A stretch of DNA of 25,369 bases from Bacteroidia bacterium. Its GTDB lineage: Bacteria; Bacteroidota; Bacteroidia; Bacteroidales; VadinHA17. The stretch covers positions 1 to 25,369 of the forward strand of contig JAPLDX010000033.1 in NCBI GenBank assembly GCA_026391215.1, read 5' to 3'. Below, piece by piece: positions 2-25,369 of the stretch. The notes under the pieces are model-generated. The model did not search any database and was not told the origin of the DNA. It saw nothing but the letters and a program-made list of their open reading frames with translations. A program made the position numbers and the translations under genes. Positions within the stretch are counted from its first letter, which is position 1. Each line of letters starts with the position of its first letter.

Positions 2-3000
2 GAGTTTATCGTAGGGACAGCGACAGGGAACTCTACGGTAGCGATAACGGGGGATGTAGCTGTAGATGAGACAGGGGATGCACAGATACAGCCGAGTGTG
101 GTAACGACATCAGAGATATTGGATGAGACGATATTGAATGATGATATAGATCCGGCAGCAGGGATAGAGTTTTCGAAGTTAGAGAGTCTGGCGAGTGCTA
201 ATATTATCCTGGGTAGTGCTGGAGCTGTACCAACGGCAACAGCGGTAAGCGGGGATGCAACGATAAACAACACGGGAGTGGTAACAGTAGGAAGGATCAA
301 CGGGACGCCTCTGGGAAGTACGGCAGCGACGAACAGCAATATACTGGTAGCAGACGGTACACAGTGGAACTCAGTAGATATGGAGGGAGATGCTACGATA
401 GATAATGCGGGGACGCTTACGCTGGCTATTACAGGGGTAACGGCAGCGATATACGGAGATGCCACTCATGTAGGGCAGTTCACGGTAGATGATAAGGGGA
501 GGCTAACCAATGCGATAGATGTATTGATCACAGGAGTATCGCCGGTAGGGTCATCGCTTGGTAGTGGTAACATATGGGTAGGGGATGCCGGTAATCTGGC
601 AGAAGAGGTCTCGATGAGCGGAGATGTACATATAGATAATACGGGATTAACGACGATCCAGGACAATTCGGTAGCAGTAACGAACCTTGAGGCCCTGGCG
701 GACGGGGAGTTTATAGTAGGGACAGATGGGACAGCAGCAGGGAATACGAAGGTTACCATAGGCGGAGATGTAGTAATAGACAACACGGGGGATGCACAGA
801 TACAGGCGGGAGTAGTAACGGCTACGGAGATAGCGACGGATGCAGTAGGGGGTGATGAGATAGTATCAGGAGCAGTAACGACATCTGAGATAGCCGATGG
901 TTCTATTATGAACATAGATGTGAATGCAGCAGCAGCGATAGAAGGGACGAAGATCAGTCCTGATTTTGGTAATCAGACAGTAACGATAGGGACGGGAACA
1001 GGAGCAACAGCAGGGACGATAGTATTGCATGATGCAGCAGCCGGGAGCAGTTTTACAACGACGATACAGTCGAATGCAACAGTACTGGCAAACTTCACAT
1101 TGACGTTGCCGGCAGATGATGGGACAGCAAACCAGTTGTTACAGACAAATGGCAGCGGAGCATTGAGCTGGATATCACCGTCGGCACTTGATCCGGACAT
1201 GTCGTTAGCAGACCTGAACAATGTAGGGAGCGATTTAGCGACAAGCGGACGTATGCTTATAGCAGACGGGGACAGCTGGGAGAGCCAGGCAATCAGCGGG
1301 GATGTATTAATAGACGCAACAGGGGTAACGGCGATCCAGGACGGGAGTGTATCAGTAACGAACCTTGAGGCCCTGGCAGACGGGGAGTTTATAGTAGGGA
1401 CAGATGGGACAGCAGCAGGGAATACGAAGGTTACCATAGGCGGAGATGTAGTAGTAAGCAACACCGGGGATGCACAGATACAGGCGGGAGTAGTGACAGC
1501 TACGGAGATAGCGACGGATGCAGTAACGAGTGCAGAGATACTTTCAGGAGCAGTTGCAAGTGATGAGATATCAGACGGAACGATCATGAATGTAGATGTA
1601 AATGCAGCAGCAGCTATAGCAGGGACGAAGATCAATCCGAATTTTGGTGATCAAACGGTAACTATAGGAACAGGGACAGGAGCGACAGCTGGTAAAATAG
1701 TATTAAATGATGCTACCGGAGGTACAACTAATACAGCCAACATACAGGCACCTACGAATGTAACCACAACATATGCACTCACTTTACCTTCAGATGCAGG
1801 ATCAGTTAATCAGGTTCTTACAAACACAGGTTCGGGTAATTTGAGTTGGACGACACCGACAACCGGAACAGTAACCAGTTTTTCGGCAGGAGATTTATCG
1901 CCATTATTTACTACTATTGAAACTAATCCGACAACCACACCGGCACTGTCTTTCACTCTTTCAAATGCAGGAGCCTATACTGTTTTTGGAAATAATACAG
2001 CTGCCTCTGCGACTCCTGCATATTTTACCCCCGTTCTTGCTTCTGCTTTGTTCCAGAACCAGGGAGCAACAACTAGTGTTCTACATGGTAATGCAACCGG
2101 TAATCCTTCATGGGGTCAGATTGTCAATAATGATATTACCAATGGAACCATTGATCTGACTGCAAAAGTAGCAGGTATTCTACCTTCTGCAAACGGTGGA
2201 ACGGGGAATGGCTTTACGAAATTCACAGGTCCAACTACTTCTGAAAAGACATTTACGTTACCCGATGCATCTGGGACCATTGCTTTGACAAACACCGCAT
2301 GGATGATCGGAGGTAATGCTCCTGGTGGTACTAGAATACTAGGTACTACTGATAATAGCGGAATCAATATACAATCAGGAACAGGTACGATAAACCTCGG
2401 AGCTGATGCTTTTGCCAAAACAATAAATATTGGTAATGCAACAGGAACAACTGCTGTAAATATAAACACAGGAACAGGTGCTTCTACTTTTGTAACAACC
2501 GGCACGGGTACATTAGTTATTGGAGGAGCTGCTTCAACTGGTGCTTTGACTTTTGGTTCCTCTTCCAATGCCCAGACAGTAAATATCGGAACTGGTAATG
2601 TTACTGGCACCGGTATTGTAAACGTTGGTACCGGTACTGCAACAGGTTCAAAGACAGTAAATATAGCAACAGACGCAATTTCCACTGTATCAATTAGTAG
2701 TGGTGCTTTTGCTTCAACAGTTAATATTGGGAATAATTCTACTGGCGCAGATGCAATCGCGATAGGATCAGCTAACGCTTCATCAACTTTGAATTTGGAA
2801 GGAGGAACAGCAACAAATGCAATTCAAATTGGCAATGGAGCAACAGCTCATGGGATACAAATAGGTTCAGGTGCTGCAGTAAATACTTTGGTATTGGGTT
2901 CTACAAATACAACAAGTACTACCACAATTAATTCCGGTACAGGTGGTCTTAATTTAAGTACCGGTGCTGCAACGCCTGCAACCACGACTCTTGGTACAAC

Positions 3001-4093
3001 AGGGTCACAGGTTTTTGCATCTTCTACTCCAAGCTCAGACATGATAGCTATTAAGCCACAATCAACTACTGCTACCGGCGCATTTACCGGAACCATTACT
3101 ACCAATAATCTTACAGCAGCAAGGACGTATACTTTCCCTGATGTAACAGGAACGGTAGCTTTAACTAATACAGCCTGGGCGATCACCGGCAATGCAGGTA
3201 CCAATCCGGCTTCAAACTTTGTTGGAACTACCGATGATAATGATCTGGTATTTAAAGCAAATAGTACCGAAAGAGCCCGGATTGTATCCAGTACAGGAGA
3301 TATTAAAATCGGAGATGCTAATACAGGAACACTTAGAGCAACAAAAGAGCTTGTGTTAAGGCAGGATGGAGATATTTATGGTACTTCTCTTCTAAGGCTC
3401 AGAAGCAGAACTGGGGAGAATGGAGCTATTTTTGAAACCACACACGCAACAGCTTGGGTAACCGATTTCATTTTTAAAACTGCTGTCAATCAAAGGAATT
3501 TCAGATACGAGGCACGTGTGGCATATGCCAGAGCCGAAGATCCTTCTTTCCATATAGGCGGTAGCAGCCCGGACAGTCCTACTTTGTCAATTGGAGATAA
3601 TTATTCTGTATTTAGAGGCGCACTCAGGGTTGGGGATAATAGTACATATCCTACTCTTCCTCTTACTCCTACTGCCTGGCTTCATCTATCCGCAGGAACT
3701 GCAGCAGCCAGTACGGCTCCACTTAAATTTACTACTGGCGCTTTTTTGACAACACCTGAGGCCGGAGCTGTAGAGTATAATGGAACCAACTTTTTTGTCA
3801 CGAATGGCACTGCCAACCGATATACGCTTGCCAAAACTTTAACCGCAACATTGACCTATGATCTCCTGCCGACTGCGTCTATGACTAGTCAGGATTTCCC
3901 CATAACAGTCACTGGAGCAGCTATTGGTGATGTTGTAGCATTAGGAATTCCAAATACTTCAAATGATCCTAATTCAAGTTACTCAGCATGGGTTAGCGCT
4001 GCAAATACTGTCATAGTACGATTTAATAATTATAGTGCCGCCGCAATTGATCCTGCTGATGGGACGTACCGGGTTAGCGTTTTAAAATATTAA
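2..4093 (+). CDS. Large repetitive T/G/A-rich fibre-like (phage tail-fibre-like) surface protein, 5'-truncated by the window edge
   Basis: The frame is open from nt 2 (EFIVGTATGNSTVAITGDVAVDETGDAQIQPS) into the tracked ORF at 98, so the true start lies upstream. Recurrent motifs: ISGDVxIDNTG, LTLPxDxGxxNQxLxxxGSGxLSW (x2), TxPDxxGTxALTNTAW (x2) and WAITGNAGTNPASNFVGTTD. The C-terminal domain (ITVTGAAIGDVVALG...AWVSAANTVIVRFNN...IDPADGTYRVSVLKY) is not a T9SS CTD. Confidence 0.75.
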   Translation, partial: EFIVGTATGNSTVAITGDVAVDETGDAQIQPSVVTTSEILDETILNDDIDPAAGIEFSKLESLASANIILGSAGAVPTATAVSGDATINNTGVVTVGRINGTPLGSTAATNSNILVADGTQWNSVDMEGDATIDNAGTLTLAITGVTAAIYGDATHVGQFTVDDKGRLTNAIDVLITGVSPVGSSLGSGNIWVGDAGNLAEEVSMSGDVHIDNTGLTTIQDNSVAVTNLEALADGEFIVGTDGTAAGNTKVTIGGDVVIDNTGDAQIQAGVVTATEIATDAVGGDEIVSGAVTTSEIADGSIMNIDVNAAAAIEGTKISPDFGNQTVTIGTGTGATAGTIVLHDAAAGSSFTTTIQSNATVLANFTLTLPADDGTANQLLQTNGSGALSWISPSALDPDMSLADLNNVGSDLATSGRMLIADGDSWESQAISGDVLIDATGVTAIQDGSVSVTNLEALADGEFIVGTDGTAAGNTKVTIGGDVVVSNTGDAQIQAGVVTATEIATDAVTSAEILSGAVASDEISDGTIMNVDVNAAAAIAGTKINPNFGDQTVTIGTGTGATAGKIVLNDATGGTTNTANIQAPTNVTTTYALTLPSDAGSVNQVLTNTGSGNLSWTTPTTGTVTSFSAGDLSPLFTTIETNPTTTPALSFTLSNAGAYTVFGNNTAASATPAYFTPVLASALFQNQGATTSVLHGNATGNPSWGQIVNNDITNGTIDLTAKVAGILPSANGGTGNGFTKFTGPTTSEKTFTLPDASGTIALTNTAWMIGGNAPGGTRILGTTDNSGINIQSGTGTINLGADAFAKTINIGNATGTTAVNINTGTGASTFVTTGTGTLVIGGAASTGALTFGSSSNAQTVNIGTGNVTGTGIVNVGTGTATGSKTVNIATDAISTVSISSGAFASTVNIGNNSTGADAIAIGSANASSTLNLEGGTATNAIQIGNGATAHGIQIGSGAAVNTLVLGSTNTTSTTTINSGTGGLNLSTGAATPATTTLGTTGSQVFASSTPSSDMIAIKPQSTTATGAFTGTITTNNLTAARTYTFPDVTGTVALTNTAWAITGNAGTNPASNFVGTTDDNDLVFKANSTERARIVSSTGDIKIGDANTGTLRATKELVLRQDGDIYGTSLLRLRSRTGENGAIFETTHATAWVTDFIFKTAVNQRNFRYEARVAYARAEDPSFHIGGSSPDSPTLSIGDNYSVFRGALRVGDNSTYPTLPLTPTAWLHLSAGTAAASTAPLKFTTGAFLTTPEAGAVEYNGTNFFVTNGTANRYTLAKTLTATLTYDLLPTASMTSQDFPITVTGAAIGDVVALGIPNTSNDPNSSYSAWVSAANTVIVRFNNYSAAAIDPADGTYRVSVLKY
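675..1525 (+). repeat. Intragenic direct repeat: 675-847 and 1353-1525, 678 bp (226 codons) apart
   Basis: Manual alignment gives 7 mismatches in 173 bp. Weaker similarity continues to about 1030 and 1710. A more diverged copy starts at nt 2. Confidence 0.9.
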
Positions 4094-4881: not shown

Positions 4882-5010
4882 GACTGCACGACTGCACGAC
4901 TGCATGACTGCACGACTGCAAGACCTGCAAGACTGCAAGACCTGCAAGACTGCAAGACCTGCAAGACTGCAAGACCTGCACGACTGCAAGACCTGCAAGA
5001 CCTGCAAGAC
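4882..5010. repeat. Tandem array of 15 units of GACTGCA(C/T/A) (8 bp) and GACCTGCA(A/C) (9 bp)
   Basis: Read directly: five 8-mers, then alternating 9/8-mers, ending in two 9-mers plus GAC. Confidence 0.95.
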
Positions 5011-5046
5011 AAAAACCAATAGTTGAAAAGTAAAGCAGAACATATA

Positions 5047-8000
5047 ATGCATCTTAATCGCAGGAAGACCGGTAGCCCTGTAATGGTCTTCCTGTCTCTG
5101 GCATTTTTATTTCTGCTTAATTGCGAGTCTTACTCCCAGGTCATCAACAACTACGGCGCTGCAATCTCACTGACAAACAATGTCTTTATGTCGTCCCGGC
5201 ATTTCTATAACATCGCCGGTGGAGACATATTCAACAATGGAACAATAAACCTCTCAGGAGACTATTCAAGCACTTCAACAACCGGCGGTAACGGCACTTT
5301 CACACTTATGGGAAACTGGACCCATAGTGCCGGACTTTTTACACCCGGAGCAAGCACTGTTCTCTTTAACGGCGCCGATAATCAGCTGATAACCCATCCG
5401 GGTGAAACGTTCTTTAACCTTTCAGTAAGTAACACCGGGGCAGCTGCGGCTAAAAAAGTGACAATAGCTAACAATATTACTGTTCAGGGCACATTGTCAA
5501 TGTCCCTTGGAAATATTGAAGCCGGTACTTTTATTCTATATCTGTCTAATCCGCTTGCAAATTCGCTTAACTATACATCTACAACCGGAAGCAGGATTTT
5601 CGGAAAATTTGAAAGACAGGTAGGCGAAACAGGTAATTACCTTTTCCCGCTGGGTGCATCTTATTATAATCCTGCAAATCTAAGAACCAATACTGCTCCT
5701 TCGGCCGGGACAATCCTCTCGGAATTTTTTAATATCGCTCCAACCGGAGGTGTCTTCCCGATAAAGGATCCGCCAGTTGAAATATCAAGGCCATTCACTT
5801 ACGGATATTGGAACCTGACAGCCAGAAGCGGATTCGCTTCCGGGAATTTCAATGTTAACCTCCGGGCATCAGGATTCATTGATTCAATTCATGATGATAC
5901 CCGCGTGATAAAGAGGATCACCGGGGGTAATTGGGAAGTGGATGGTACACACGTCAATGCTGATACCGTAAACAGTATTGTCTACAGGAATAACCTGACA
6001 GACGGTATTTCCGGACTTGGAACCCAGTTTGCCCTTGGTCGTGCAAGACCTCTGATCATTAAACATCCTCGTGATACTACTGTGTGCGAAGACGCTTTTC
6101 CTTTCTTTAAAGTCATTGCGACAGGAACACCGGCTTTAAAATACAAATGGTATAAAGTATCCACTCCAGCAGATATTGAAATCACAAATGGTGCTCATTA
6201 CGCAGGTGCCAGGACAGACTCTCTTACAATCAGAGGCGCCGTCCTTGCAGATACCGGCTATTACTACGCTATCGTGACTGACCGGCATAAGAATTTTACC
6301 AGGACAGATTCAGCACACCTGACAGTCCAGAAGATACCTCGTGCCGCAATAGTATTGAATGTTGACCAGAATCATGAATGTTCCAATATTAATTTCGATC
6401 CTATCACTCCGGGACTGACCTACTGGGATAATGTCACAACTTACCTCTGGACACGGAACAATCCTTCCGGAATTACTTCCTCTATGCCAATGAGCGGAAG
6501 CAATCTGAATTTCGGTGATGTAATAACCGGATCATTTACGAATCTCACGGATGCCCCGATAAAAGTCACTTTCCTCATAACACCTGTCGGACCAACTCCC
6601 AGATATTGCGTCGGAAATCCTGTTCCTGCAACTGTAACTGTCAACCCGACACCTCGCGTCATACCAATAAATGTTAAACCGGCAATATGTAACAACGGAT
6701 CAACAGAGATCACGCTGACCACGCCAACCTCAATGACCAAGGGTGCAATATTATTTGACTATACTGTCAGTCTTACAGGAGGTGGTACCCTCACAGGTGA
6801 AACAACAGCAAGGACGAATCTGAATCCGGGATATAAGATTGTTCTGCCATACGTGAACTCATCGGATACAATACAATCTGTGTACTATACAGTTACACCA
6901 AAAGCCAGCGACGGCACCCTGGGTTGTGTATACGACAGCATAAGGATACCTCAGGTAAGAGTACATCCAAGACCGCTTCAGGATTTCTATATTTCAACGC
7001 CATTCCTTTGCGAGGGCGCATCTGATGGGGCTCTTACTGCTGAATTGTCAAAAGGATCCAAGCCCGATATTATCAAGTGGGAGAGACCATGGCTTGGAGA
7101 AACCACGTACACCACAACTGCAAATACAGATATCCTGCCTGTCAGGTATGTTGGTAATTACAGAGTGACGGTTCGCGATGAACTAGGATGTTCCAGCGTA
7201 AGCAGTTATATACTGGTTTCCGGAGCTATTCTCGATTCTTATATGTACGTGAAAGAGAAAACAAATACTTTTGGAACAACCTGTCCGGAATCCAGCGATG
7301 GCGAATTGTGGATCAAGGAAACCAGCGGATCAACAGGTATTGCTCCGTTTGTGTACTCACTGATTTACAATGGAACAGATACAATAGTTGAATCAGATAC
7401 TCTCCTTACCAAAGAATCATTTAATTATTACTATAACCTTAGATCGGGATATTACAGGTTATACCTTCAGGATGCGAATGGATGCTATAATGTCAGCTAT
7501 CCTGGTGTTGAAATAATTCCGCCTCAGGTTATCACTGTAGAATTTGAGAAATATGAATATCCGGGAACCGGGAATTATAATATATCATGCCTTGCTTATA
7601 GCGACGGTTCTGTAAGGATAGATTCTATTTCCGGAGGAAGCGGTGGTTATAAATACAAGTGGACAACCATAAGCGGAACTATTACCGGAGCAGATACTTT
7701 AGATCACCTTGATAATATTACTGCAGGTAAATATTATCTTACAACTACAGATCTGATGGGTTGTGTAAAGGTTGACAGCGTTACTCTGACAGAACCTGTC
7801 GGAATGATCTTATCCGATACTCTGATCTCGAATAGTGCGGATGGCAATTATAATATATCATGCAATGGAGGCAATGACGGCTTCATTAACCTGACCATCA
7901 CCGGCGGATCTGGAAATTATCTTTATTCCTGGACCGGGCCGGGCGGTTATACGGCAACAACAGAGGATATTTCAGGACTGAAAGCCGGAACTTATACCTG

Positions 8001-9561
8001 CATCGTCACAGATGTCAATGGCTGTATACTTACCCCGAATCTGTCGTTTGACCTGACTGAACCTGCGGCGCTGAATATAACTTCTGTCCCATCGCTGGCA
8101 CCAGATGGATCTAATAATATTAATTGTTACGGCGGGACCGGATCAGTTGATATTACAATAACTGGCGGCAGTGCAGGCAATCCATATAAATATACCTGGA
8201 GCACAACTAATGGATCAGGACTGGTTGATGGATCGGATGATCAGACAGCGCTTTCCGCAGGAACCTACCATCTTGTTGTCACTGATCTGAATAATTGTGT
8301 CGCAACAACAGATATAACCCTTGCACAGCCGACAGCTCTTGGAATTACTCTTGTCCCGACACATATTACCTGTGTTACACCAGGTTTTGCTAACGGATCC
8401 ATTGATGCAACAGTAACAGGAGGAGTATTACCGTATAACTATACTTGGTCAAACGGAGCTTCCGGTGAAGATATTTCAGGACTGACCAGTGGGTATTACA
8501 ATGTCATGGTCACCGATGTCAACGGATGCCAGATACCCGATACGGCATTGATCAATATGCCGCCGGATGTATTATTTAACAAGGTTCTGTCTGACTTTGA
8601 CGGCTATAATGCAAGCTGTTACGGATCGTCAGATGCAACAATAAATATCAACATGACAAGCGGATTGGCTCCATTCTCATTCAGCTGGGCAGGTCCTGGC
8701 GGATATTCTTCTACGGATCAATATATTACCGGACTTGCAGCAGGGCCATATACATTGCTGATCACTGATGCCAATGCATGTACGGCAACAGAAGTAATAA
8801 CTGTTACACGACCCGGAAGGCTCAGTATGAATATTACATTATCAGAACAGGGAGGTTATAATATTAATTGTGCAGGCGACAGTACTGGCACCATCGGGAT
8901 CGTACCGGTTAATAATGTTGGGAATGTACGATATCTGTGGTCTGACGGATTAACTTCAACATCGAGATCTGGTCTTCCTGCAGGAGACTACGGCATGATC
9001 ATCACCGATTCAAATGGCTGTCTTGCTGATACAACGATTACGCTTACCCAGCCTGATACTATAAAAATAACACACGAAACAACACTGCCATTGTGTCCTG
9101 ATAAGCCGGATGGAGAAATAAGACTGACCGTTACCGGTGGTGTGGTTGGCACGGATTATACTTACAGATGGTCCGATAATTCAACAACAGCGACTATCAG
9201 CGATCTTTACAGTGGTTTGTACTCAGTGACTGTATCCGACATGAATGGATGCCTGGTTACAGATACTATTAACCTTGAGCCGGTTAAGGAAGCTTGTCTT
9301 GAGATACCAAATGCCATATCACCAAACGGTGACCTGATAAATGATTACTGGAACATAGGACAGATAGACATATATCCTGAGGCAGAAATAAAAGTCTTTA
9401 ACAGGTGGGGTGAAATCATCTGGAGATCAGAGAAAGGATATCCTCAGCCATGGGACGGAAGAACCAATGGAAGGCTGCTGCCTGTAGACTCATATCATTA
9501 TGTAATTGACCTGCATAACGGATCAAAACCGATTGTTGGGAACATAACTATTGTAAGGTAA
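5047..9561 (+). CDS. T9SS type-B CTD (gliding motility-associated C-terminal domain, CHU_C) protein with Ig-like, PKD-like and SprB repeats
   Basis: C-terminus IPNAISPNGDLINDYWNI...KVFNRWGEIIW...WDG...YHYVI...GNITIVR. Multiple SprB-type repeats (ISCNGGNDGFINLTITGGSGNYLYSWTG...GLKAGTYTCIVTDVNGC). Signal peptide ending SYS-Q. Start uncertain (TTG 5023, ATG 5047 or ATG 5083). Confidence 0.92.
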   Translation: MHLNRRKTGSPVMVFLSLAFLFLLNCESYSQVINNYGAAISLTNNVFMSSRHFYNIAGGDIFNNGTINLSGDYSSTSTTGGNGTFTLMGNWTHSAGLFTPGASTVLFNGADNQLITHPGETFFNLSVSNTGAAAAKKVTIANNITVQGTLSMSLGNIEAGTFILYLSNPLANSLNYTSTTGSRIFGKFERQVGETGNYLFPLGASYYNPANLRTNTAPSAGTILSEFFNIAPTGGVFPIKDPPVEISRPFTYGYWNLTARSGFASGNFNVNLRASGFIDSIHDDTRVIKRITGGNWEVDGTHVNADTVNSIVYRNNLTDGISGLGTQFALGRARPLIIKHPRDTTVCEDAFPFFKVIATGTPALKYKWYKVSTPADIEITNGAHYAGARTDSLTIRGAVLADTGYYYAIVTDRHKNFTRTDSAHLTVQKIPRAAIVLNVDQNHECSNINFDPITPGLTYWDNVTTYLWTRNNPSGITSSMPMSGSNLNFGDVITGSFTNLTDAPIKVTFLITPVGPTPRYCVGNPVPATVTVNPTPRVIPINVKPAICNNGSTEITLTTPTSMTKGAILFDYTVSLTGGGTLTGETTARTNLNPGYKIVLPYVNSSDTIQSVYYTVTPKASDGTLGCVYDSIRIPQVRVHPRPLQDFYISTPFLCEGASDGALTAELSKGSKPDIIKWERPWLGETTYTTTANTDILPVRYVGNYRVTVRDELGCSSVSSYILVSGAILDSYMYVKEKTNTFGTTCPESSDGELWIKETSGSTGIAPFVYSLIYNGTDTIVESDTLLTKESFNYYYNLRSGYYRLYLQDANGCYNVSYPGVEIIPPQVITVEFEKYEYPGTGNYNISCLAYSDGSVRIDSISGGSGGYKYKWTTISGTITGADTLDHLDNITAGKYYLTTTDLMGCVKVDSVTLTEPVGMILSDTLISNSADGNYNISCNGGNDGFINLTITGGSGNYLYSWTGPGGYTATTEDISGLKAGTYTCIVTDVNGCILTPNLSFDLTEPAALNITSVPSLAPDGSNNINCYGGTGSVDITITGGSAGNPYKYTWSTTNGSGLVDGSDDQTALSAGTYHLVVTDLNNCVATTDITLAQPTALGITLVPTHITCVTPGFANGSIDATVTGGVLPYNYTWSNGASGEDISGLTSGYYNVMVTDVNGCQIPDTALINMPPDVLFNKVLSDFDGYNASCYGSSDATININMTSGLAPFSFSWAGPGGYSSTDQYITGLAAGPYTLLITDANACTATEVITVTRPGRLSMNITLSEQGGYNINCAGDSTGTIGIVPVNNVGNVRYLWSDGLTSTSRSGLPAGDYGMIITDSNGCLADTTITLTQPDTIKITHETTLPLCPDKPDGEIRLTVTGGVVGTDYTYRWSDNSTTATISDLYSGLYSVTVSDMNGCLVTDTINLEPVKEACLEIPNAISPNGDLINDYWNIGQIDIYPEAEIKVFNRWGEIIWRSEKGYPQPWDGRTNGRLLPVDSYHYVIDLHNGSKPIVGNITIVR

Positions 9562-9583: not shown

Positions 9584-10561
9584 GTGAAACGATTTATATA
9601 CATACTGATATTCATGATGGCCGGCAGCATGGCTTATAGTCAGCAGCTCCCTGTATATAGTCAGTACCTGTACAACAAGTTTCTTATTAACCCCGCTGTA
9701 GCAGGGAGCGATGGTTATACCAGCATCAATCTCACAGCAAGGGAACAGTGGGTAGGTTATTACGGAGCGCCCCGCACCTATTCATTCAGCTTTCAGACCA
9801 GGATGCTGAAACGAAGCTATATCTTAAAGCGGACCATCGTAAAGCGGCAGGTTTACCGGCCGAAAAAAGATGGGAAAGTTGGTTTGGGAGGTTATGTTTT
9901 CAGCGATAAGAACGGAATAATCCACAGAACAGGTTTCCAGGTTTCTTACTCGTACCATATGTGGCTGCATCAGTCTACGCAACTTTCGATGGGACTGGCT
10001 TTTACAGGATATCACTATAAAATCGATGAAAGGGAAATAAACTTTGAAGATCCCAATGAGCCATTGTTGTACAGTAATTTGCGCCGCGGGATGTTTGTCT
10101 CTGATGCTTCTTTCGGCGTCTATCTTCTGAATGCAAAGTACAGTGTAGGATTTTCTGCTGAACAGTTATTCGAAGCAGCTGCAAAGATCAGTAATGGTGC
10201 TTATAAAAATATTAAAGTTGAAAGACAGTATTATCTGTTCGGAAATTACACTTTTGCTTTAAATACTTACACAGAGCTTGAACCGTCGGTTCTATTTATG
10301 ATGTCGGAACAGCTTAAACCCCAGGCAGATATCGGATTAACATATATTTACAACCAGGCATTCCAGGCAGGACTGGCTTACAGAACCAGCGGAGCTTTGA
10401 TAGCAACAACAGGTTTTAAGTATTTAAATCTCTGGTTTGGCTATTCTTTCGATTTTACCCTCTCGGAAATACAGCGCGTTACTTACGGGACTCACGAAAT
10501 TACGGTAGCCCTGAAATTCGGAGACAAAGCCCGCAAATACCGTTGGCTGGATCGGTACTAA
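9584..10561 (+). CDS. Type IX secretion system membrane protein, PorP/SprF family
   Basis: QQLPVYSQYLYNKFLINPAVAG...AREQWVG...GAPRT N-terminus and FGYSFDFTLSEI...GTHEI C-terminus; lies directly after a type-B CTD gene. Confidence 0.93.
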   Translation: MKRFIYILIFMMAGSMAYSQQLPVYSQYLYNKFLINPAVAGSDGYTSINLTAREQWVGYYGAPRTYSFSFQTRMLKRSYILKRTIVKRQVYRPKKDGKVGLGGYVFSDKNGIIHRTGFQVSYSYHMWLHQSTQLSMGLAFTGYHYKIDEREINFEDPNEPLLYSNLRRGMFVSDASFGVYLLNAKYSVGFSAEQLFEAAAKISNGAYKNIKVERQYYLFGNYTFALNTYTELEPSVLFMMSEQLKPQADIGLTYIYNQAFQAGLAYRTSGALIATTGFKYLNLWFGYSFDFTLSEIQRVTYGTHEITVALKFGDKARKYRWLDRY

Positions 10562-10566
10562 AAGAC

Positions 10567-10652
10567 CACATGTACCCACCCCCCAAGCCCCCCCTCCTTG
10601 GATCACATGTACCCACCCCCCCCAGCCCCCTCCCTGCTTCGCAAGGAGGGGG
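10567..10652. repeat. Left REP-like repeats: truncated unit 10567-10600 plus full unit 10604-10652 with hairpin CCCCCTCCCTGC-TTC-GCAAGGAGGGGG
   Basis: Both units begin CACATGTACCCACCCCCC. The stem is read directly and has one mismatch. Confidence 0.9.
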
Positions 10653-10680
10653 AGCTAATATGTTAAATAATAATAGTTGC

Positions 10681-10688
10681 TACCTTTG
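10681..10688 (+). promoter_or_regulatory. Bacteroidota sigma-70 -7 box (TACCTTTG) for the DUF559 gene
   Basis: Perfect TAnnTTTG match ending 23 nt before ATG 10712. No clear -33 TTTG. Confidence 0.6.
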
Positions 10689-10711
10689 ATCAGGTAGTGG
10701 AAGTTAATAGG

Positions 10712-11101
10712 ATGTCAAAATTTCAGAAGTTTGATTTCAGAGGAATAAAGAAGCAGGCTCAGGAATTGAGAAACAATATGACTGAGTCTGAAAAACTTTT
10801 ATGAAGGGAAATAAGAGGGAAGAAACTTTCAGGATTCAGGTTTTTAAGGCAACATCCCATATTATATAAGGGTAATCTGATAAGAAATAATTATTTCATA
10901 GCTGATTTCTACTGTGACGAAAAGAAAGCAGTAATAGAAATTGATGGCCCGATCCATGAAGGATCAGAAGAATATGACGATTACAGAGATTCTGAATTGA
11001 AAGAACTGGGAATGCATATTCTGAGAATTAAGAATGAAGAGCTTAAAAATATGCAGGAAGTACTCATCAGGATAAATACATTCCTCACCCAAATAAACTA
11101 A
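10712..11101 (+). pseudogene. DUF559 / Vsr-like endonuclease domain protein with in-frame TGA at codon 31
   Basis: Manual translation: MSKFQKFDFRGIKKQAQELRNNMTESEKLL*REIRGKKLSGFRFLRQHPILYKGNLIRNNYFIADFYCDEKKAVIEIDGPIHEGSEEYDDYRDSELKELGMHILRIKNEELKNMQEVLIRINTFLTQIN. It matches the DUF559 motifs LRxxxTxxExxLW, FxRQ, ADFYC, IExDGxxH and RD..L..G..ILR.xN. The TGA (10802-10804) replaces the conserved Trp. Confidence 0.88.
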
Positions 11102-11128
11102 TAATCAGCAACATACACAAAGTCATTT

Positions 11129-11177
11129 CCCCCTCCTTGCGAAGCAGGGAGGGGGATCAAGGGGGAGGGTACGTGTG
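11129..11177. repeat. Right REP-like repeat, inverted relative to 10604-10652
   Basis: CCCCCTCCTTGCGAAGCAGGGAGGGGG is the exact reverse complement of the left hairpin. It is followed by ATCAAGGGGGAGGGTACGTGTG. Confidence 0.9.
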
Positions 11178-11199
11178 ATAAAAGCCAGGAGAGGAGGGA

Positions 11200-12102
11200 T
11201 TAATGTGCTGACGGGATGGCACGTAGTATATATATCACCGAACTACTTCCTTTCTTTCGAAGCATTGACCTGAATGCGAACCAACATCCTTTTACCATTC
11301 CCGAAATGAACGGCATGTTTGTCCCCAAGTGTCTTTCACTCAGGATTGAAATGTAAAAAACATCTGCAGGCAGGCTTTTAATGCCAATAATCTCAAAACC
11401 ATTCTTTTCAGCAAGGGTCCTGAAAGTATCAGGTGAAAAATGCCATAAGTGCCTTGGTACATCCCAGGCTGCCCAAAACTGCCTGTAGTGTTGTGCATCA
11501 AAAGAACTGCAGTTAGGCATGGCTGCAATACATATTCCTCCCGGCTTAAGCAACCGCTTGATCAAAACCATATACTTCACTGGATCATGGAAATGCTCAA
11601 ATACATGCCACAATGTTATGCAGTCAAAGTGATTATCCTCAATTTTTTCAAGATCATTATCTTCCAGTACTTCAAGGTTGAATTTTGATGATGCAAATTT
11701 TCCGGCTCCTTCATTTTTTTCAAGTCCTGTAACTTTCCAGCCGGCTTGTTTCATAAGTCCGGCAAAATATCCGGTGCCGCATCCCATATCAAGAAGTGTC
11801 CCAGTTTTCAGTCCTGTAGAATGACTGATAATGTATTTTTTGCGGGAAAGCATCACCCTGCGAACAAAATGATAAAGGAAATTTGTCAATCCTCTTTTTG
11901 TATCACTATGAGAAATATAGTCGCCGGCAGCATAATATTTCCCGATCTCATCTTCAGAAGGTGGATTGGCGGTAAACAGAAAGCTGCAGCTTTTACAGGT
12001 GTAAATATCAAAATTATCTCCCCCGGTCAGATGATCTTTGCAATCCAGGTTGAATTCAATATTGTTACTGCCGCAGACGAGACACTTATTCTCCAGTGCC
12101 AT
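11200..12102 (-). CDS. Class I SAM-dependent methyltransferase with N-terminal CxxC...CxxC motif
   Basis: LLDMGCGTGYF motif I, FDCITLWHVFEH, LLKPGG, DVPRHLWHFS; CLVC...CKSC. Confidence 0.9.
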   Translation of the reverse strand: MALENKCLVCGSNNIEFNLDCKDHLTGGDNFDIYTCKSCSFLFTANPPSEDEIGKYYAAGDYISHSDTKRGLTNFLYHFVRRVMLSRKKYIISHSTGLKTGTLLDMGCGTGYFAGLMKQAGWKVTGLEKNEGAGKFASSKFNLEVLEDNDLEKIEDNHFDCITLWHVFEHFHDPVKYMVLIKRLLKPGGICIAAMPNCSSFDAQHYRQFWAAWDVPRHLWHFSPDTFRTLAEKNGFEIIGIKSLPADVFYISILSERHLGTNMPFISGMVKGCWFAFRSMLRKKGSSSVIYILRAIPSAH

Positions 12103-25059: not shown

Positions 25060-25127
25060 ACTCAAAATCTTTGGTTTTACAACCAAAATTGGCCTCAACT
25101 CCTCCCGTCCGCATATCTGCTTTTAAT

Positions 25128-25291
25128 CACATGTACTCACCCCTCATTTAATAATTTCACGTACCCTTCCCCTTAACCCTCCCGACCTGCTGTATAGTCA
25201 GCACGTACCCTCCCCCTTGATCCCCCTCCCTGCTATATAGTCAACATGTACCCTCCCCCTTGATCCCCCTCCCTGCTTCGCAAGGAGGGGG
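25128..25291. repeat. Tandem array of four REP-like units, progressively degenerate outward
   Basis: GTAC cores at 25133, 25161, 25205 and 25248. Only the innermost unit keeps the full hairpin. Confidence 0.88.
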
Positions 25292-25318
25292 AAATGACTT
25301 TGTGTATGTTGCTGATTA

Positions 25319-25369
25319 TTAGTTTATTTGGGTGAGGAATGTATTTATCCTGATGAGTACTTCCTGCAT
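25319..25369 (-). CDS. 3' end of a second DUF559 gene (…MQEVLIRINTFLTQIN*), partial
   Basis: Identical to 11051-11101. Whether the full gene is intact cannot be seen. Confidence 0.8.
   Translation of the reverse strand: MQEVLIRINTFLTQIN

Follow-up and report, generated by a model that had tools for sequence, protein, structure and literature searches.

A probable transposase-free, REPIN-like mobile element carrying a DUF559 nuclease gene in a Bacteroidia genome

In a Bacteroidia bacterium of the VadinHA17 group (Bacteroidales), a small gene of the DUF559 nuclease family is enclosed by inverted palindromic modules in the interval between a porP/sprF gene and a methyltransferase gene. The 25,369-nt stretch analysed here, called the window, is an entire contig (JAPLDX010000033.1, C29 below) of assembly GCA_026391215.1, a genome (G000) of 3.39 Mb in 135 contigs with 41% G+C. 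We consider that the DUF559 unit is probably a transposase-free mobile element similar to REPINs (inverted doublets of REP, repetitive extragenic palindromic, sequences), in which the DUF559 nuclease serves as the cognate enzyme. This reading draws on how the element is built, how many copies its modules have and how these covary in structure; on the pairing of gene with module, which is specific to the clade; on the purifying selection that acts on the gene; and on the presence or absence of the element at orthologous sites.

Structure of the element

The element measures about 570–590 bp overall. Its inverted arms (10597-10653 and 11128-11184) are 57 nt long, 86% complementary, and both fold as GC-rich hairpins (DNA fold z -2.3 to -3.6), so the unit of some 600 bp with inverted terminal palindromes around a DUF559 gene, which an earlier note on this DNA had described, is indeed present. 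The left module (10605..10653, + strand; nhmmer E 1.9e-12; DNA fold -11 kcal/mol, z -2.5), also supported by covariation, consists of a ACATGTAC end, a C-run that is a third-strand candidate, and a hairpin of 12 bp containing a C·A mismatch. It is followed on the same strand by a 58-nt leader (10654..10711), the first 25 nt of which resemble the spacer of gene-less doublets in the spacer alignment, by the nuclease frame of 129 codons (10712..11102), in which an in-frame TGA (10802-10804) replaces Trp31, and by a 25-nt 3' tail (11103..11127). The right module (11128..11176; nhmmer E 2.3e-12; DNA fold -13.2 kcal/mol, z -3.5) lies inverted on the - strand. Just outside the left module is a truncated, loop-broken one (10567..10600, + strand), which ends 4 nt before the full module, retains the ACATGTAC end, the C-runs and only the left hairpin arm, and forms a direct repeat with 10601-10635 (80%).

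The frame starts 151 nt past the PorP/SprF stop and ends 98 nt ahead of the methyltransferase stop at 11200; the 638 nt between the two convergent stops consist almost wholly of the DUF559 unit. As the earlier note had remarked, the leader contains a perfect TAnnTTTG box (TACCTTTG, 10681-10688, + strand), although this motif occurs in the window at chance frequency (21 observed vs 21.9 expected). The place of such a box upstream of the ATG is kept in relatives, where 50 of 86 TAnnTTTN occurrences (68 loci) fall at -27 to -23, and this positional clustering supports a putative own promoter of the DUF559 gene better than the single box of the window. Scans of the unit for sigma-70 promoters and intrinsic terminators gave nothing useful and no terminator, and an Rfam scan of 10400-11400 returned no family, just a chance-level mir-29 match (E 0.36).

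Structure and covariation of the module

The hairpin that had been called REP-like exists, while the sequence quoted for it is just the inner part of a module of about 50 nt, composed of the ACATGTAC tip, the C-run, and then the GC hairpin of 12 bp, whose C·A mismatch (G·T on the other strand) is conserved. Save for this one position, which is C·A in 94/100 modules of G000, the 12 stem pairs are Watson–Crick in 89-100 of the approximately 100 modules. Three sets of alignment columns covary: columns 8, 28 and 41 are CCG in 53 of the 102 modules and TTA in 42; columns 11, 25 and 44 read CCG in 71, TTA in 17 and TTG in 8; and columns 31 and 38 read GC in 72 and AT in 23. Since the three sets combine freely, this covariation is not a simple subfamily linkage.

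In two of these sets, the outer C-run base changes together with the stem pair, in parallel register to the purine arm. Such a change goes beyond Watson–Crick pairing and therefore suggests a pyrimidine third strand (C+·G-C, T·A-T). The triple covariation is repeated in 146 distinct modules of other species, with TTA in 113 and CCG in 11 for one set and CCG in 112 and TTA in 11 for the other. Judged from these patterns, the module points to an intrastrand triplex former of the BoxC/PIT type. Some modules also carry a mini-hairpin of about 20 nt (e.g., TTCGCTACGCTCAGG) between two C-runs (C111:62279-62345, C74:34490-34559, C128:9210-9276, C133:58121-58191). A sequence resembling this type of mini-hairpin occurs in the 221-nt porP–methyltransferase spacer of the relative G010 (L051).

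The repeat family in the genome

Iterated nhmmer searches detected 102 modules in the genome, 88 of which form 44 convergent pairs, or doublets. The layout parallel to REP units and their REP-associated tyrosine transposases (RAYTs), drawn in the earlier note, thus stands, with the flanked gene being DUF559 instead of a Y1 transposase, and so does the notion of a dispersed family without a transposase, in which full and gene-less copies coexist. In 31 doublets, the elements are 117-129 bp long with an AT-rich spacer of at most 30 nt; seven have spacers of 43-51 nt and three of 84-155 nt. Three further doublets with spacers of 472-474 nt enclose DUF559 genes (C29, C16 and C111), and a copy split between contigs C3 and C29 is the fourth gene-bearing element, compared with 41 gene-less doublets of about 120 bp.

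The 25-nt spacer of the short doublets is the one that resembles the beginning of the leader, and the intermediate doublets (C77, C100 and C117) retain the 3' tail of the gene-bearing unit, with 80-81% matches to unit positions 531-615. Because of this leader-like spacer and retained tail, the gene-less doublets look like internal-deletion derivatives of the gene-bearing element, in the manner of REPINs or of MITEs (miniature inverted-repeat transposable elements). They are intergenic: 43/44 doublets are not spanned by an open reading frame (ORF) of at least 100 aa, and many lie 2-10 nt from the adjacent ORF. Their junctions are convergent in 16 cases, tandem in 19, divergent in 5 and at a contig edge in 3, the remaining one being spanned by an ORF.

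Truncated, loop-broken modules lie just outside both window copies, and likewise at the C16 copy, at the C8 and C38 doublets, and at L064, L067 and L069 in relatives. This handful of cases suggests that the loops of older modules may be break or entry points. A genome-wide search for orphan left hairpin arms returned mostly regular-expression misses or coding sequence, with a few true truncated modules, which stand beside full ones.

Coupling of nuclease lineages and module types

Nine loci of the genome match PF04480, the DUF559 profile: four belong to the same clade as the window gene, and five, on C125, C38, C109, C64 and C88, are more distant. C-run/hairpin sequence adjoins 9/9 of these loci, and the module sequence differs between the gene lineages. 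In 8/9, inverted C-run/C-run/loop/G-run modules stand on both sides, while the C38 gene is accompanied by a hairpin pair of its own, arranged as a direct repeat. The type flanking the C88 gene (C6-N2-3-C6, TGAA or TAAA loop, G6) is present in 63 copies, many of them in doublets of about 100 bp; one copy brackets the DUF559 gene (C88:11222-11832), and others are exemplified by C9:20671-20769 and C31:10042-10140. A further type (CCTCTCCCC-AAA-CCCCTCCCCC...GGGAGGGG), found in 17 copies, brackets the DUF559 genes of C109 and C64. At the C125 locus (C125:18692-19003, L029), the gene is situated at the 3' end of a neighbouring ORF, about 40-60 nt of whose end are repeated flanking the cassette, and the DUF559 protein has PPNPPEGG at its N-terminus, encoded by the module.

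The same coupling is seen beyond this genome. In a survey of 60 other genomes of the genus, where same-clade genes are those with 52-70% protein identity, 17/17 same-clade loci have the module beside the gene, 13 on both sides and 4 on one side (2 of these at contig ends), in comparison with 0/12 loci with more distant DUF559 genes. Across 80 loci in species-representative genomes, the module is present on both sides in 48, on one side in 20 and on neither in 12, which are the most distant. An inverted-repeat score of at least 20 between the two flanks was reached in 44/68 loci vs 0/257 shifted controls. Separately, a contig labelled as a Chloroflexota metagenome-assembled genome (L155) has a same-clade DUF559 fragment (58% identity) with an adjoining module of the porP-unit family, which could be a case of mis-binning or of horizontal transfer.

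The nuclease and its stop codon

With the TGA read as tryptophan, the DUF559 frame matches PF04480 at 99.6 bits (cut-off 20.6, E 1.2e-28) over profile positions 3-108 of 109, so the small DUF559 gene named in the earlier note passes the profile check, although its frame is interrupted in the assembly. The TGA is codon 31, and for this reason no + strand ORF of at least 60 aa is listed there. Trp31 is invariant in 16/16 proteins of the clade, and the sister copy on C3 has TGG at this codon. In contigs of four public runs that contain the window sequence, all from freshwater-sediment metagenomes, position 10804 is G and not A (depth 17.5/17.5 in X1, 23.5/23.5 in X2, 15/15 in X3 and 6.29/6.3 in X4). 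Run contigs lose rare variants, which limits this reading, and so the window copy, which reads as a nonsense allele, may be dead, a minority variant or the product of an error in assembly. Another same-clade copy, L061 (G058:C1:1333977-1334360), is decayed differently, with TGA at codon 54 and the catalytic His82 changed to Tyr.

Five residues (E76, D78, H82, D89 and D93) are invariant in 16/16 sequences; their putative equivalence to the Vsr catalytic residues is taken from the accessible part of PMC3239194. Profile matches to solved structures include 3hrl (4e-17) and the catalytic domain of I-Bth0305I, 3r3p (3e-5). In a Foldseek search, the AlphaFold2 model of the protein (pLDDT 85.6) matched 3hrl with TM 0.87 (E 1.8e-6) and 3r3p with TM 0.70, the match to 1vsr being weak (TM 0.40). 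The product is therefore predicted to be an EDxHD-type, Vsr-like PD-(D/E)xK nuclease. Purifying selection acts on the gene: the ratio of nonsynonymous to synonymous divergence (dN/dS) is 0.07-0.27 in the 30 of 78 gene pairs with computable dS, dS being saturated in the other 48.

The second copy upstream of glyS

The window contains a second copy upstream of a glycyl-tRNA-synthetase-like gene (glyS), as the earlier note had stated. It occupies 25244..25369 on the - strand and comprises the right module (25244-25292), the 3' tail and the last 23 DUF559 codons with the stop, where the contig ends. In inverted orientation, this segment matches 11051-11176 at 99% over its 126 nt, and is not identical over all 122 visible bp as had been claimed. 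Next to it, a stack of truncated modules stands upstream of the tRNA-synthetase gene (25126..25243, + strand), with members at 25126-25143, 25158-25200 and 25202-25236, each loop-broken.

The other half of this copy is the end of contig C3 (5992-6298), which is 89% identical to unit positions 5-324, the differences being mostly in the leader. In 5/5 relatives, the gene that ends C3 lies next to the tRNA-synthetase gene in divergent orientation, and from this synteny the ends of C3 and C29 abut. In addition, a contig of run X2 joins a C3-type leader, with its 12-nt deletion at 10657, to the DUF559 gene. The two copies share 89% identity in the leader and 99-100% in gene and tail, and they are near-identical from module tip to module tip, C-run spacers included. 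Since the identity ceases at the ACATGTAC tips, these tips mark the copied unit. The second copy is thus real and recent.

Occupied and empty sites

The porP–methyltransferase junction lacks the DUF559 element in 11/11 relatives of the genus, 10 of which have 4-53 nt there and one 221 nt with a different repeat. Likewise, the glyS-upstream region has no module of the porP-unit family in 5/5 relatives, 2 of which hold other module families. Empty orthologous sites thus exist for both copies of the window. Among 22 gene-bearing loci, flanking genes are common to just three groups (of 2, 3 and 2 loci), and in most metagenome contigs the porP site is empty, the gap being at most 56 nt in 35 of the 58 contigs with both porP and the methyltransferase gene.

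Other metagenome contigs show that the junction has been occupied in several ways. L173 and L174 have an intact DUF559 element in the opposite orientation, about 100 nt past the porP stop vs 6 nt in G000; L181 has a decayed gene between modules; and L180, L176 and L210 have modules alone. L180 has no gene and yet retains the start of the inner sequence of L181, which suggests that its doublet may have arisen by deletion in place. Empty relatives with about 91% nucleotide identity in porP surround both L181 and L180, while L177 is itself empty although nested within the clade of G000, L173 and L176. These mixed states within the porP clade indicate that the site was gained or lost several times. 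The porP-site copy of G000 may therefore be old in its lineage or a separate hit, and the recent duplication proposed in the earlier note holds for the glyS-side copy but perhaps not for this one as a fresh insertion.

The metagenome search gave no strain of the same species, the best PorP match being 84.6% identical, and the run contigs did not bridge the porP–methyltransferase junction in either form. One joint in X3, which skips from 10662 to 11125, was rejected, since its 14 intervening letters match the spacer of the C85 doublet and so come from a different doublet. A tandem 8-nt tract of the GGTGCAAA or GGCGCAAC type directly follows the porP stop in L173 (2980-3050), L177 (935-975), L210 (2980-3020) and L182/L185; G000 does not have it.

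Neighbouring genes and other features of the window

The left neighbour of the insertion is the PorP/SprF gene (9584..10561, + strand; PF11751, E 1.5e-69), with its stop codon at 10559-10561, and the convergent right neighbour encodes a class I S-adenosylmethionine-dependent methyltransferase (11200..12102, - strand; PF13489, E 7.9e-30). A tandem array of 8-9-nt units (CTGCAAGAC-like, at least 11 copies) is located at 4882-5018, just upstream of a 1512-aa ORF (5023-9561). Further upstream, the 1363-aa frame at 2-4093 contains a 300-nt direct repeat (614-913 and 1292-1591, 84% identity) plus shorter repeats, and looks like a repetitive protein upstream of PorP/SprF.

The enzyme behind the family

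We suppose that the nuclease would recognise its own module type when this is extruded or single-stranded, and would nick or cut it; the loop and the G·T mismatch are possible places for this. The element would then be copied by the host through repair of the break or through replication, the destination being either an existing module or doublet, as in homing, or a new intergenic site. Both the action of the nuclease on the modules and the manner of copying are here inferred. The conserved G·T mismatch might be a recognition feature for a Vsr-like enzyme, an idea that draws by analogy on the Vsr activity described in the accessible parts of PMC3239194 and PMC12907096. What favours the nuclease as cognate enzyme is that the modules are tied to no other gene.

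Several observations weigh against this reading. The link between nuclease and modules is, at the level of sequence, a correlation, and stops interrupt 2 of about 20 same-clade genes from G000 and the genus loci, namely those of the window and of G058. Modules occur in 11/43 genus genomes in which a same-clade gene was not found vs 10/17 with one, in counts obtained with an insensitive 64-nt BLAST query (19 matches in G000 vs 102 by nhmmer), so that we do not lean on the per-genome numbers. The putative triplex is deduced from the parallel-register covariation, and a C-G pair replaces the C·A mismatch in 13/135 modules of other species. The flanks of the 44 doublets reveal no target-site duplication, and, since a PD-(D/E)xK nuclease is unable to join strands, host functions would be needed for any spread to new sites. 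Finally, the DUF559 proteins of L173/L174 are 70.6% identical to that of G000 and the adjacent methyltransferases 70%; with nuclease and methyltransferase equally diverged, long vertical residence fits as well as repeated insertion.

A rather unlikely alternative, to which we nevertheless give some weight, is that the DUF559 gene is a homing-type parasite, which would cut gene-less doublets and copy itself into them by serving as template for the repair, the doublets themselves being spread by another route, such as replication or recombination of the host at structured DNA, or by an enzyme that escaped notice. A true homing endonuclease, I-Bth0305I, is among the relatives of the family, and free-standing genes are included in the family as presented in the accessible part of PMC3239194. 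The gene always stands precisely between two modules, gene-less doublets outnumber gene-bearing ones 41 to 4, modules are present in genomes where a same-clade gene was not found, and the mosaic identity of the recent copies (lower in the leader than in gene and tail) suggests conversion. However, the duplicate is near-identical over both whole modules and ends at their tips, as expected from a copy of the whole element and not of its core. The gene-less doublets need not be independent, as they appear to arise in place from gene-bearing ones (L181 vs L180), and we found the modules linked to no further candidate for the enzyme.

It is improbable that there is no enzymatic link at all, i.e., that the modules act in the structure or regulation of DNA or RNA (as insulators, mRNA stabilisers or recombination hot spots) and accumulate between genes, DUF559 being a host repair nuclease that resides by chance in such hot spots. 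Intergenic junctions do gather different module families in different species, as the two relatives with other families upstream of glyS illustrate; a Caulobacter DUF559 protein behaves as a Vsr-like repair or damage factor in the accessible part of PMC12907096; and the triplex motifs of Holder et al. 2015 (PMC4666352) are tied to genomic instability and, in the part of that paper accessible to us, have no mobility genes adjoining. Such a reading leaves aside the flanks at 9/9 DUF559 genes of the genome, the clade match of 17/17 vs 0/12 and the 0/257 shifted controls reaching the inverted-repeat score. Moreover, the DUF559 gene is found at many different sites, and the unit has neither an intrinsic terminator nor an Rfam family.

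Even less credit is due to mobilisation of the modules in trans by an HUH (Y1) transposase of the genome in the REP/RAYT fashion, with DUF559 as a passenger. The genome has seven matches to PF01797 (Y1 transposase), which score either as IS200-type or as REP-associated tyrosine transposase, in the latter case below the family cut-off, and the doublets resemble REPINs in their layout and in lying between genes (with junctions that are convergent in 16, tandem in 19 and divergent in 5 cases). Nevertheless, 0/7 Y1 loci adjoin the porP-unit module family, the four examined have their own, unrelated inverted repeats, and the lineage-specific module types of DUF559 would be left unexplained. Thus, the helper in trans that the earlier note had allowed as a driver of spread finds no support. 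Three of the four examined Y1 loci, L038, L039 and L041 (on C31, C101 and C100), are bracketed by distinct inverted repeats of their own; classical REP/RAYT-like units are present in this genome beside the DUF559 units.

An assembly artefact as the origin of the second copy is very improbable: it and its presumed other half both lie at contig ends, but its flanks differ from those of the first copy on both sides, the synteny of the C3 terminal gene with the tRNA-synthetase gene holds in 5/5 relatives, and the X2 contig joins the C3-type leader to the gene.

Relation to known repeat systems and significance

REP sequences and REPINs are short, GC-rich intergenic palindromes, mostly at gene ends, which form inverted doublets in tens of copies per genome; a few copies bracket a small enzyme gene, and each enzyme lineage, a RAYT, is matched to its own repeat type. 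The DUF559 family is similar in all these features. It differs in that its enzyme is a predicted PD-(D/E)xK Vsr-like nuclease and not an HUH/Y1 transposase, and in that its module has a conserved mismatch and a C-run that covaries, putatively as a third strand. With MITEs and their parent insertion sequences, the family shares terminal inverted repeats, non-coding derivatives of about 120 bp and a longer gene-bearing parent, but the DUF559 parent has no transposase and no target-site duplication was seen in the doublet flanks.

The BoxC, PIT and TMECO repeats, as far as they are described in the accessible part of PMC4666352, have the same block order (C-stem, loop, G-stem, loop, mirror G-stem) and are likewise dispersed, GC-rich and located at variable loci; in that part, Holder et al. 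2015 found no transposase or integrase near the triplex motifs, and the words “nuclease” and “endonuclease” do not occur in the text of PMC4666352. In contrast to the motif given there, CCCTCNCCC N3-6 GGGNGAGGG N3 GGGNGAGGG, which the module consensus does not fit by eye, the hairpin described here is longer (12 bp) and has the conserved mismatch and the ACATGTAC tip. With the EDxHD homing endonuclease I-Bth0305I (3r3p; accessible part of PMC3239194) and with 3hrl, the DUF559 protein shares the catalytic fold, the conserved E, D, H and D, and selfish-gene settings. Unlike that endonuclease, the DUF559 unit has no intron or intein and no NUMOD or helix-turn-helix domain, encodes 129 aa only, and its gene sits in a multi-copy palindromic repeat instead of a single conserved host gene.

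What would be new is an enzyme of another class in a REPIN-like system of repeats. In the published literature that we searched, supplementary files apart, we found no description of DUF559 nuclease–repeat cassettes. A survey of programmed inversions reports DUF559 as enriched near inverted repeats (odds ratio 14.3), without comment in the accessible part of PMC9881135.

DUF559 is a very common bacterial domain without, to our knowledge, an established role, and we know of no origin or enzyme for the GC-rich triplex-type repeats (BoxC, PIT and TMECO). One can tentatively suggest, as a possibility that we regard as somewhat short of even, that DUF559 nucleases are the missing partner enzymes of bacterial BoxC/PIT-type repeats, acting in a lineage-specific manner and nicking extruded modules, possibly via the G·T mismatch, after which repair would copy the module pair. 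Escherichia coli may offer a model system for such nuclease–repeat pairing in the form of ycjD and BoxC. Some 150 nt downstream of the K-12 DUF559 gene ycjD (region L087 8041-8830) lies a BoxC/TMECO-like motif, and the gene's own 3' end is duplicated; ycjD is present in 3378/5426 complete E. coli genomes, and the 41-nt motif downstream of it matches elsewhere in those genomes. The genome of E. coli O157:H7 TW14359 was tried as an empty ycjD site and set aside, as a different gene set lies upstream of fabI and the site is not clean.

If the partnership is true, the DUF559 units would make up a third class of REP-like system, in which a nuclease takes the place of the transposase as driver, and would provide a function for the large DUF559 family together with an origin for repeats known since the 1990s. 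Lineage-specific pairing of nuclease and module would thereby add a nuclease-based route for the colonisation of bacterial genomes by small repeats.

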